From contig CAWFXL010000001.1 in the NCBI GenBank assembly GCA_963819815.1, forward strand, positions 864,001 to 928,000: a DNA stretch of 64,000 nucleotides. The letters are read 5' to 3'. The notes below the pieces were generated by a model, which saw nothing but the letters and a program-made list of their open reading frames with translations, made no database searches and was not told the origin of the DNA. Positions 57,236 through 58,936 of the stretch are shown in pieces. Position 1 is the stretch's first letter. Each line of letters starts with the position of its first letter. The DNA comes from an uncultured bacterium. Lineage in GTDB: Bacteria; Babelota; Babeliae; Babelales; Babelaceae. The position numbers and the translations under genes were made by a program.

Positions 57236-58936
57236 TTATGCGCTTGGGGCAGCAATATCATGGTACTTGCTATATTTTGGATCCCAATAATAGGTTTTAA
57301 ATGCCCAGGCACCAAGTCCCACTATTCCCGTCAATGCAAGCACTTTCCCAATCTGCAATCCATCTTTGTGCTTCAGAATTTGTGGGTTCTGACCTGAAGG
57401 TAGCGGGCCATTCTGGTTTCCAGTTGATGCTGGTTTGGTGGGAGAATTAACTCCACTACCTTGGGTTCCACCGGTAGCTCCTGAAGTCGGTAATGCAGGA
57501 CTTACTGAGTTATCTATAGGAACTGGATCATCTACAGGTGCTTTCGGTACTGGTGGTCGAGAAGATGAACCAGCATTTTTATCTTTCAACGGCGGAGCTT
57601 TCGGCTGAGCGGCACCCTTACCCGGTTGCTTTTGCTGCGGTTGCTGAGGAGCTCGAGCTTCTGTGTTCGTTACATTGGTCGCTCCAGATGCTTGAGGAGC
57701 TGCCCCTACTGCTTGTTCTTTTAGAGCATTTCTTTCTTTAATTTCTCTTGTAATAGCCTCCATAGGAGTATCTTGAGAAGGAGCCTTTTCAGACAACTTT
57801 CTATTTCCAGCGGGACGCAAATTTGCACCTGCTCCTTCCTTAATTGCTTTTGTAATAGCATCTGTAGGAGATCCTTGAGAAACATTTTCATTATGAGGAA
57901 CCTTTTCAGCTAGCTTTCTATCTTTTGCAGAACGCAAGGCTGCACCTGCCTGAATGGAAGCTAGTAGCTGAGAGCGATCTTCTGGAGATGCTTGTGCGGC
58001 AGGCTTCACTACAGGTCTTGAAGGTTGTGGTGGGGGTGGGGGTGCATTCTGGACAACTGGTGCGGCTGCATTCGTGTTTTGCTGAGGTTGGCTATCATCA
58101 CCATCGTCATCATCCTCATTTGCAGAAATAGGCCGGGCACCTTGACTCGGTGTTGCAGTTGTTCGTGAATTTCCCAATGGGCGACCCGTATTTGATACAG
58201 CTCTACCAGTATCTTGAGGACTCGTTGGCGGGGCAGCATTTCTTTGCTCACCTTGACCAACCAAATTTTTGATACGACCAAATAGTGCGCCAAGCATACT
58301 TGATTCACTCAGTGCATCAGCCCCATTCGACACTCTTGGCTCTTGTGTTCCTGCTTGTCGTTCTCCGGTAGGACGCAAAGTTCTCCCATTTCTAACCTCA
58401 GAGAGCAAGTTCGAAGTAGCAGGTTTTGGAACGGCTATTTGTTCTTGTGGCGTCGAGGTCGTACTAGAAGTTGTATGAACAGAATCTGGCTGAACCACAC
58501 ATTTGTTTAAAAGAACGACCAAGGAACAATAACCCTCAGCTTCACAATCTTTGAACTCAAGCTTATTAGCAGTAGTTCTATCCACTGCTGGATGAGGATT
58601 CGCTGAAAATTTTTCATGTATGAAAGCACAGACCAGGCCGATTTTTTTCAGTGCTTCATGTAGGTTATGGTATCCTTTGTTTCTCTCTAACTCTTCTACT
58701 AATCGCAATAAGTATCGAGGTAGATCCATAACCGCAATCGTTTTTAATTTAGCTGTAAGATCTTCCCGAGAAAGATCCAATTGCATCACTGCATTGCTAC
58801 CAGACATAGCTTTATTTATTGCTGCCAATTCTTTCTTAAGATGCTCATTATTTTCTTGTGAACTGCTAGCACCATACAGTGGACATCCTATTGCCAGGAT
58901 GACTATTCCAAGATTCAGTGTATACACAAATTTCAT
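57236..58936 (-). CDS. Secreted, C-terminally anchored protein with tandem WH2-like motifs and poly-Pro
   Basis: Signal peptide; LLSEVRNGRTLRPT, RSQLLASIQAGAALRSA, AITKAIKEGAGANLRPA; APPPPPQP; C-terminal TM VLALTGIVGLGAWAF. Confidence 0.7.
   Translation of the reverse strand: MKFVYTLNLGIVILAIGCPLYGASSSQENNEHLKKELAAINKAMSGSNAVMQLDLSREDLTAKLKTIAVMDLPRYLLRLVEELERNKGYHNLHEALKKIGLVCAFIHEKFSANPHPAVDRTTANKLEFKDCEAEGYCSLVVLLNKCVVQPDSVHTTSSTTSTPQEQIAVPKPATSNLLSEVRNGRTLRPTGERQAGTQEPRVSNGADALSESSMLGALFGRIKNLVGQGEQRNAAPPTSPQDTGRAVSNTGRPLGNSRTTATPSQGARPISANEDDDDGDDSQPQQNTNAAAPVVQNAPPPPPQPSRPVVKPAAQASPEDRSQLLASIQAGAALRSAKDRKLAEKVPHNENVSQGSPTDAITKAIKEGAGANLRPAGNRKLSEKAPSQDTPMEAITREIKERNALKEQAVGAAPQASGATNVTNTEARAPQQPQQKQPGKGAAQPKAPPLKDKNAGSSSRPPVPKAPVDDPVPIDNSVSPALPTSGATGGTQGSGVNSPTKPASTGNQNGPLPSGQNPQILKHKDGLQIGKVLALTGIVGLGAWAFKTYYWDPKYSKYHDIAAPSA

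Follow-up and report, generated by a model that had tools for sequence, protein, structure and literature searches.

A candidate Sec-exported, tethered actin recruiter carrying a WASP-like V-V-C cassette in an uncultured member of the Dependentiae

What does an intracellular bacterium do with an exported protein that carries WH2-type actin-binding motifs, and would such a protein ever meet the actin of its host? The question is raised by P0001, the product of an open reading frame (ORF) in a stretch of 64,000 nucleotides (the window) that comprises positions 864,001 to 928,000 of contig CAWFXL010000001.1 in assembly GCA_963819815.1. The source genome (G000, with its contig C1) measures 1.64 Mb in two contigs and has a GC content of 0.43. 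The bacterium that harbours P0001 is an intracellular protist parasite of the Dependentiae (TM6), a phylum of obligate protist parasites according to two reports (PMC6561590; PMC4776705). The original prediction, made from the sequence of the window, was a tandem-WH2 actin nucleator or recruiter tethered by a C-terminal membrane anchor. With moderate confidence, we favour a reading in which P0001 would be a Sec-exported, tethered protein that recruits or assembles actin as a host-directed effector, and would not be a classical Arp2/3 activator.

The coding region of P0001 is a genuine ORF of 566 residues, in which tandem repeats at the DNA level are confined to runs of Pro and Asp codons (Table 1). 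The strings on which the original prediction was built are present within a few bases of where it had placed them: motif 1 at residues 175-190 (nt 58367-58414), motif 2 at 321-337 (57926-57976), motif 3 at 358-376 (57809-57865) and motif 4 at 392-407 (57716-57763), together with the acidic EDDDDGDD at 274-281 and the Pro-rich APPPPPQP at 298-305. The poly-Pro precedes WH2-type motifs, and both lie between the export signal and the C-terminal hydrophobic anchor as had been described. Searches of 5.8 billion clusters and of 1.84 billion representatives identified only two full-length relatives: P0002, a metagenomic protein with 52% identity to P0001, and P0003, a paralog of 729 residues in the same genome (G000:C1:1589842-1592031, 40% identity) that keeps only the poly-Pro and motif 2 part. 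A region search of the 5.8-billion database with residues 295-412 returned only P0001 and P0002, a profile search of the 1.84 billion representatives only eight proteins at E<=0.001, and an alignment-based search of genome contigs no relative. Among 60 related genomes, the P0001 gene was seen only in G001, a genome that is 67% complete, as 21 residues at a contig end.

The first three motifs had been called good WH2 motifs and the last a weaker fourth. In a scan with the WH2 family PF02205, whose gathering cut-off is 23.1 bits, motif 2 was matched at 22.7 bits in the whole protein (E 7.4e-5), at 24.6 bits as a 46-residue piece and at 24.0 bits in a six-frame search of the genome, clearing the cut-off in the latter two. 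Its counterpart scored 23.6 bits in P0003 (27.8 bits in the six-frame search) and 20.6 bits in P0002, and the core of the motif is invariant in all three proteins. When residues 300-345 were compared with the Protein Data Bank (PDB), the best match was an actin-bound WH2 construct of Spire, Spire DDD (3mn7_S, E 0.0033); a longer query (residues 296-412) gave weak matches only (HscA, E 0.26; Spire, E 0.86). Motif 2 follows the pattern LL..I..G..LRSA and motif 1 the pattern LL..V..G..LRPT, so that an amphipathic helix and an LKKV-type motif at the proper spacing are found in both. An AlphaFold2 (AF2) model places a helix of low confidence over motif 2 (residues 318-333).

As Pfam misses obvious WH2 motifs in related proteins, for example in P0008, a lineage WH2 profile was built; its 32 WH2 instances stem from 19 ORFs that belong to other Dependentiae genomes and not to the P0001 family, and locus L066 was excluded as an ortholog of a protein of the source genome. 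Against this profile, motif 2 scored 14.6 bits and motif 1 scored 11.7 bits; composition-matched shuffles of residues 151-525 reached 8 bits in 0 of 2000 cases and 5 bits in 1 of 2000. Among 1368 ORFs of the source genome, scores above 5.9 bits were confined to the three WH2 proteins. The third of these, besides P0001 and P0003, is a protein of 329 residues (C1:1574466-1575455) with a signal peptide and no anchor; it contains an Ala/Pro-rich region and a WH2 of 27.9 bits. Variants of the LRPT, LRPV and LKPV type recur among the 32 instances. A profile of motif 2 made from P0001, P0002 and P0003 recovered half of motif 3 at an i-E of 0.021 and motif 1 only at 0.77. P0002 has motif 1 with 55% identity, and P0003 lacks it. 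As putative WH2 motifs, motifs 1 and 2 thus score beyond chance, and the number that the statistics support is two, not three or four. A tandem arrangement had also been proposed; motifs 2 and 3, 37 residues apart, agree with it, whereas the two strong motifs are separated by 130 residues.

The remaining motifs became interpretable through relatives in other members of the phylum. P0008 (369 residues) aligns colinearly with residues 305-410 of P0001 (36% identity, BLASTP E 5e-9), and a protein of 191 residues from genome G056 is also colinear with this part. A four-way alignment displays the order poly-Pro, WH2, RKLxEK tail, second WH2, RKLSEK tail and an amphipathic Arg-Arg helix, after which an acidic run with a terminal Trp comes in P0008 and the G056 protein only. 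With two stretches of WH2 (38.3 bits), the latter also matches N-WASP in the PDB (3m3n_W, E 1e-6; 6uhc_H residues 399-496, E 3.5e-4), the match extending through the C helix and the acidic tail; P0001 itself, unlike this relative, has no N-WASP match there. Because motif 3 aligns with the second WH2 of these V-V-C-A modules, it would be a diverged counterpart of it. Its support comes through this alignment: the lineage profile reached 1.9 bits over its C-terminal half only, and its spacing from helix to LR is longer than in motifs 1 and 2. Motif 4 shows no WH2 signal with Pfam or the lineage profile, and appears to be the counterpart of the WASP-type C helix and not a fourth WH2. This assignment is drawn from the alignments only, as a C-helix profile made from 10 relatives (one row, L064, being mis-anchored on an earlier Arg-Arg) gave no score for motif 4, which is 70% identical in P0002. 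As judged from these alignments, the cassette of P0001 shares ancestry with the V-V-C portion of the N-WASP-like V-V-C-A modules found in other Dependentiae. The A element, defined here as a Trp with at least 5 Asp/Glu within ±6 residues, was found in none of P0001, P0002 and P0003. What follows the C-like helix in P0001 and P0002 is non-acidic sequence, then a spacer of about 110 residues and the anchor. The acidic run of P0001 is devoid of Trp and lies upstream of the module, and thus does not correspond to the classical VCA 'A' element.

The V-V-C-A modules are not confined to these two relatives. In six-frame searches, PF02205 matched 32 of 261 Dependentiae genomes at E<=0.01, G000 included, and 21 were above the cut-off; among good-quality genomes the count was 24 of 189, and among control genomes 0 of 14. 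From 44 listed places we read 20 WH2 ORFs, the high-scoring ones of 18 other genomes (loci L058-L077), leaving aside the places in the source genome and most sub-threshold places. A hydrophobic N-terminus was present in all 16 that have a complete 5' end. By the rule given above, 9 of the 20 contain an acidic-embedded Trp, and three more (L063, L070, L075) have, by eye, an acidic C-terminal stretch with Trp. Many have a signal peptide and poly-Pro together with one, two or three WH2, a C helix and a tail of the acidic-Trp type; L074:3380-3952(-), L061:3349-5241(-), L063:3420-4223(-) and L068:2-889(+) can serve as example relatives. The N-termini and the acidic-Trp counts indicate that secreted WASP-like V(V)CA proteins are recurrent in the Dependentiae. 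P0001 is therefore apparently no lone oddity, and would be an anchored, A-less derivative of this repertoire, a form that, as far as these sequences go, is peculiar to the P0001 family.

We also examined the scaffold that carries the cassette. The hydrophobic N-terminal leader of the original prediction is present, and additionally carries a lipobox-like A-I-G-C18 that satisfies the broad PROSITE-type lipobox rule. Gly17 and Cys18 are invariant across P0001, P0002 and P0003, and the x-x-G-C leader motif is also found in a RING-finger-like protein described below (the RING paralog) and in P0007 and P0009. The genes for Lgt and LspA are both present in the genome, that for Lgt within the window at ~2107-2844. 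A lipoprotein signal is a plausible reading of the leader; a signal peptidase I site beyond the Cys is a possible alternative. The N-domain, as had been proposed, is helical: the AF2 model of residues 24-152, built with four sequences, has six helices with a pLDDT of 80 and a pTM of 0.71. It is 62-65% identical to P0002 and P0003 and 27% identical to P0007. No fold match was obtained for it with Foldseek in the PDB (best E 0.79) or with VIA-align against 48,161 chains (best Z 7.4, inside the background for helical models), and a search of the ESM Atlas with residues 24-152 gave nothing usable. A prediction of a two-copy complex of the N-domain scored 0.02 against a mark of 0.42, a result that speaks neither way on oligomerization. 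No oligomerization or dimerization domain was recognized in P0001 with Pfam, Foldseek or VIA-align.

The middle region (residues 151-525) is rich in Ala, Pro, Ser, Gly and Gln. The AF2 model of full-length P0001 (3 sequences) has a pLDDT of 38 and is usable for rough helix positions alone; besides the helix over motif 2, it shows helices of low confidence at 211-226, 357-367 and 391-409, and the remainder of the middle region is unstructured. The short helix at 209-228 resembles by eye the helix that precedes the acidic-Trp run of P0009, and did not match the C-helix profile. With Pfam at E<=10, P0001 matched WH2, weakly Htt_N-HEAT_1, and no other family, and no meaningful NCBIfam match was obtained for P0001 and four related proteins. 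As for the C-terminal transmembrane (TM) helix of the original prediction, a hydrophobic stretch at residues ~529-546 is real, but it is weak, with a best 19-residue Kyte-Doolittle mean of 1.44, and is followed by a tail of 20 residues. The anchor and tail are the best-conserved part of P0001 (80% identity to P0002), and the same module ends four other metagenomic proteins with different passengers (P0004, P0009, P0005 and P0007). P0009 (676 residues), P0007 (599) and P0005 (780), also metagenomic, are distant scaffold relatives that share the leader, the N-domain or the YYWDPKY-type anchor; none has a WH2 match, and P0009 contains poly-Pro as well as a short helix and a Trp-bearing acidic run. 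No sorting signal of the LPXTG, PEP-CTERM, GlyGly-CTERM or similar type was found with NCBIfam and Pfam at E<=10 in P0001, P0003, the gene product next to P0001, its paralog at locus L004 or the RING paralog.

Table 1. Features of P0001 and its surroundings, in window coordinates
Feature	Residues	Coordinates	Strand	Description or basis
P0001 ORF, 566 residues	1-566	57236..58936	(-)	ATG start; stop codon included
Export leader	1-23	58868..58936	(-)	Hydrophobic core and lipobox-like A-I-G-C18; Cys codon 58883-58885
Helical N-domain	24-150	58487..58867	(-)	AF2 model
WH2a (motif 1), predicted	173-194	58355..58420	(-)	Lineage WH2 profile
Short amphipathic helix	209-228	58253..58312	(-)	AF2 helix 211-226 (low confidence); 50% identity to P0002
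Acidic run without Trp	272-283	58088..58123	(-)	17% identity to P0002
Pro-rich stretch	297-313	57998..58048	(-)	Five consecutive Pro; 76% identical to P0002
WH2b (motif 2), predicted	317-341	57914..57988	(-)	Pfam PF02205; followed by RKLxEK tail
Degenerate WH2c (motif 3), putative	356-386	57779..57871	(-)	Alignment to relatives; LRPAGNRKLSEK tail
C-like (connector) helix (motif 4), putative	389-408	57713..57772	(-)	Aligns with C helix of P0008 and the G056 protein
Pro/Gln/Ser/Ala-rich spacer	409-520	57377..57712	(-)	At the position of the acidic-Trp tail of relatives; 42% identity to P0002
C-terminal anchor module		57239..57352	(-)	Gly/Ala-rich hydrophobic residues ~529-546, then YYWDPKY tail ending in small residues
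Shine-Dalgarno GGAGGA		58943..58948	(-)	6 nt 5' of P0001 ATG; consensus match only
Promoter-like site		59161-59132	(-)	~200 bases upstream of P0001; consensus match only
Neighbouring gene, 485 residues		55712..57169	(-)	Next gene downstream of P0001; signal, Q..C..H papain-like set, C-terminal TM, -AAA tail

In the mechanism that we propose, P0001 would leave the cytoplasm by Sec through a cleavable, possibly lipoprotein-type leader, and its conserved, weakly hydrophobic C-terminal helix would keep it at a membrane. The actin-binding parts would be the isolated WH2 (residues 175-190) and the cassette (297-408), in which poly-Pro is followed by a WH2, a degenerate WH2 and a C-like helix. The latter would have originated as the V-V-C of a VVCA module whose acidic/Trp, Arp2/3-binding tail was replaced by the spacer and the anchor; as the acidic/Trp element is gone, Arp2/3 would not be needed. 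We infer that P0001 binds actin, spans a membrane in the corresponding topology and is exposed to the host cytosol, where many tethered copies may capture G-actin or profilin-actin. The outcome would be local filament assembly or attachment, by tandem-WH2 nucleation or by elongation assisted by the proline-rich domain (PRD) together with WH2. Surface-clustered PRD and WH2 of WASP proteins speed elongation, as described in one report (PMC5753033).

A number of observations weigh against this proposal. The whole-protein PF02205 score of P0001 lies 0.4 bits under the cut-off, and motifs 1, 3 and 4 as separate pieces had no Pfam match at E<=10. The lineage profile was seeded by a regular expression written after these motifs had been seen, and so favours them somewhat. 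The poly-Pro is short, with five consecutive Pro in P0001 and three in P0003 (P0002 has eight). The family consists of three full-length members in all, so that the evidence from conservation is thin. The anchor is marginally hydrophobic, its mean of 1.44 being below the TM threshold of 1.6 used here, and a hydrophobic C-terminal segment was found in 0 of the 20 related WH2 ORFs (maximum 1.3). VirB4 was not found in the genome; a type III system was not searched for. Finally, a signal together with a C-terminal TM in a diderm by default gives an inner-membrane protein, with the WH2 region in the periplasm. Topology is the weak link of the proposal.

This last point also speaks for a rival explanation, which we consider rather unlikely: that P0001 is an envelope protein that never meets actin, anchored in the inner membrane, perhaps N-terminally lipidated and spanning the periplasm, and that the WH2 cassette is a leftover or binds a bacterial partner. 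Two Omp85 genes are present in the genome, indicating a diderm with an outer membrane, and the default topology is the periplasmic one, with a basic tail after the TM. The lipobox-like Cys is conserved, Lgt and LspA are encoded, and the combination of signal and anchor is common to many proteins of the genome. On the other hand, the identity to P0002 is 0.76 for the poly-Pro, 0.72 for motif 2, 0.70 for motif 4, 0.65 for motif 3 and 0.55 for motif 1, compared with 0.47 over the whole disordered region; the poly-Pro, the two WH2 of the cassette and the C-like helix are thus its best-conserved parts, which argues for selection. Proteins with the same type of leader or anchor carry other eukaryote-type parts, namely a RING finger (23.1 bits, under its cut-off of 27) and a papain-like Cys/His set, and WH2 has, to our knowledge, no bacterial target. 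Routes by which P0001 might leave the cell are speculative and include lipoprotein export of the type II secretion system (T2SS) kind, vesicles, or a helix that escapes stop-transfer and is then inserted as a tail anchor in the host. The T2SS is reported to be core to TM6 (PMC4776705), and in a cultured member of the Dependentiae 44% of the coding sequences have signal peptides and outer-membrane vesicles were observed (PMC6561590). The source genome itself has four to five secretin (PF00263) matches, at G000:C1:1178086-1185459 and C1:22164-22663; three large secretins are in tandem, and one secretin locus is apparently split by a TGA.

A second alternative, which we judge unlikely, is an ActA- or WASP-like Arp2/3 activator, in which the WH2 motifs, the C-like helix and the upstream acidic run at residues 272-283 would recruit host Arp2/3 at the tethering membrane. 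The cassette does descend, by alignment, from V-V-C-A modules, the distant relative P0009 retains a C-like helix and, after it, a Trp-bearing acidic run, and the acidic element of ActA is itself N-terminal to the actin-binding region. Yet P0001, P0002 and P0003 all lack a Trp within or close to their acidic runs, the sequence past the C-like helix is non-acidic, the acidic run is only 17% identical to that of P0002, and the C-helix profile gives no score. Taking the known anatomy of VCA proteins as a guide, the V part (one or two WH2) is found in P0001 and the A element is not, and for this reason P0001 does not qualify as a VCA nucleation-promoting factor.

We regard as still more doubtful a third possibility, that P0001 is secreted and then tail-anchored in a host organelle (mitochondria, endoplasmic reticulum or vacuole), so that actin would be recruited there and not to the bacterium. 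The position of the helix, ~20 residues from the C-terminus with a hydrophobic core of ~15-18 residues and basic flanks, and the conservation of the module across different passengers fit such an anchor. Its Kyte-Doolittle value of 1.44 is also low against a median of 2.07 for 454 polytopic TM peaks, a rough comparison as these peaks are >=1.6 by construction. One report describes a cultured member of the Dependentiae that rearranges host mitochondria around itself (PMC6561590). Against this stand the facts that the tail anchor is read from hydrophobicity alone and that no route is known for a TM-bearing Sec substrate over the outer membrane. That the WH2 likeness is a chance product of a low-complexity region in a protein of unrelated function is very improbable and already disfavoured: WH2 motifs are short, the Pfam score of the whole protein falls slightly under the cut-off and three of the four motifs are invisible to Pfam, but the shuffles stayed far below the scores observed, the motif is invariant in three homologs, the alignment with VVCA relatives is colinear at E 5e-9, and PF02205 is absent from the control genomes.

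The surroundings of P0001 provide further observations. The TypA gene adjoins, and its relatives are 74-99% identical, the copy in G001 being the one at 99%. In the slot between truA and the GNAT/iPGM genes (loci L015-L027), each related genome carries a different signal-peptide ORF. As the ORF 3' of truA differs in each genome of the genus, the P0001 locus is a variable spot, and the slot looks like a hot spot for effector turnover. The next gene downstream of P0001 has a paralog at G000:C1:~642.7-644.1 kb (L004:694-2070 (-)), with which its product shares the invariant motifs Q...N.CGF.ALAN, GG.HWVLL and MYLLNSSNAP. Their residue order is papain-like and, by eye, UCH-like, and suggests a Cys protease of the deubiquitinase type. 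The protein encoded next to P0001 had no match in Pfam, NCBIfam or PDB sequences; Peptidase_C48 appeared at E 0.14, in its paralog only.

Adjoining P0003 is a RING-finger-like protein (L003:469-1713 (-), which is G000:C1:1588328-1589572; P0006 is listed with it). It matches zf-C3HC4_3 at 23.1 bits and Prok-RING_4 at 21 bits, both below the cut-off, and has the leader MKFVYTL...LALGC, as in P0001, and a similar C-terminal anchor; its called start is probably too far upstream. The other flank of P0003 is occupied by an acidic, Ser-rich protein of 1009 residues with a similar anchor. Judging from the RING protein and the other flanking anchored proteins, the anchored format serves several eukaryote-type passengers.

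The -AAA tail of the protein encoded next to P0001 recurs in the genome. ORFs ending in -AA number 29 among the 1368 greedy ORFs, against 9.3 expected. Among 35 ORFs ending in -AA or -A.A, 12 have a hydrophobic N-terminus, a Gly/Ala-rich hydrophobic segment, a YYY stretch and a polar -AAA tail, and two further -AAA proteins qualify on the assumption that their called starts lie too far upstream. One tandem cluster at G000:C1:982391-998379 contains nine of the -AAA-tail genes. The tail module may serve as a C-terminal anchor, sorting signal or degron of a kind not yet described. We considered that the -AAA tails might be copies of a tmRNA tag end, and dropped the idea: the tmRNA predicted by ARAGORN (G000:C1:1058578-1058946 (-)) has the tag AEMPGLNAHVACA, which ends in -ACA and not in the usual -LAA, and is marked 'tag not identified'. 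At the end of contig C1 (G000:C1:1599015-1604637) there are three large paralogs with signal peptides, Cys/Ser-rich N-termini and a C-terminal Phe, which by eye look like outer-membrane proteins.

How does P0001 compare with known actin factors? Like the VCA region of N-WASP/WASP and RickA of Rickettsia, it has poly-Pro ahead of two predicted WH2 and a putative amphipathic C-like helix; in contrast to the WASP VCA, its second WH2 is degenerate, no acidic/Trp A comes after the helix, and the protein is equipped with a Sec leader and an anchor. With ActA of Listeria monocytogenes it shares the overall format, in which a long disordered region containing acidic, Pro-rich and (in P0001 predicted) actin-binding parts lies between a signal peptide and a C-terminal membrane anchor. 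The two are unrelated in sequence, as no ActA family was among the Pfam matches of P0001 at E<=10 and P0001 has no FPPPP repeats. Moreover, ActA works in a monoderm and its acidic element has a Trp, whereas the bacterium of P0001 is a diderm and the acidic run has none. WH2 and poly-Pro are also combined in Spire, which gave the best PDB match, in Cobl, in VopL/VopF of Vibrio and in TarP of Chlamydia. Compared with these tandem-WH2 nucleators, P0001 has one motif that passes the Pfam cut-off, and its strongest two are far apart. BimA of Burkholderia and Sca2 of Rickettsia are surface-tethered WH2 and Pro-rich actin builders of diderms, but they are autotransporters whose anchor is a β-barrel or trimeric; that of P0001 is one C-terminal helix, and the Pfam scan revealed no autotransporter domain. 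From Legionella pneumophila, two reports describe MavH, with one WH2-like domain and actin assembly only on membranes containing phosphatidylinositol 3-phosphate (PI(3)P) (PMC10381072), and RavH, a PI(3)P-dependent nucleator with three tandem WH2-like domains (PMC13481308). Like P0001 as proposed here, these are WH2-like effectors of a protist-infecting bacterium that act when tethered to a membrane. Set beside P0001 by these descriptions, they differ in having a PI(3)P-binding domain and type IV delivery in place of a hydrophobic anchor and a Sec leader. In short, P0001 is ActA-like in format, RavH/MavH-like in principle and, by descent, a relative of VCA mimics of the WASP type, RickA among them.

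The original prediction stated that no characterized example from this lineage was known, and this agrees with our search of the literature, which found no publication linking the Dependentiae with WH2 (subscription journals and bioRxiv supplements were outside the search). Among the listed Dependentiae publications that mention actin, none is about actin effectors as far as titles and the beginnings of abstracts tell, and the lone mention of actin in PMC4776705 is the title of a reference on MreB.

Bacterial actin factors such as ActA, RickA, BimA, Sca2, VopL/F, TarP and RavH/MavH have taught much about nucleation, and all come from a few well-studied pathogens. What is new here is that proteins with WH2 and N-WASP-like VCA modules, fitted with ordinary Sec signal peptides, are encoded in an almost uncultured phylum, and that one lineage appears to have converted such a module to a membrane-anchored, A-less form. 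More tentatively, as a view that we consider possible and not probable, the Dependentiae, for which neither a type III nor a type IV injection system is known, would have a phylum-wide set of Sec/T2SS-exported WASP mimics, and P0001 and its paralog would have arrived anew, in a diderm, at a solution like that of ActA, with a V-V-C cassette grafted onto a scaffold that has its own leader, its N-domain and a new kind of anchor. Host actin would then be assembled on a bacterial, vacuolar or organelle membrane, and the anchor and the -AAA tails would be a new sorting or quality-control signal for exported effectors. The proteins described here raise the questions of how signal-peptide effectors reach the host without known injection systems, of what a tethered V-V-C module can do without its Arp2/3-binding tail, and of whether actin-based positioning or motility is older and wider among protist parasites than the cases from animal pathogens suggest. 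P0001 would be of value mainly as an entry point to a set of Sec-exported WASP mimics that extends across the phylum and has not been described before.

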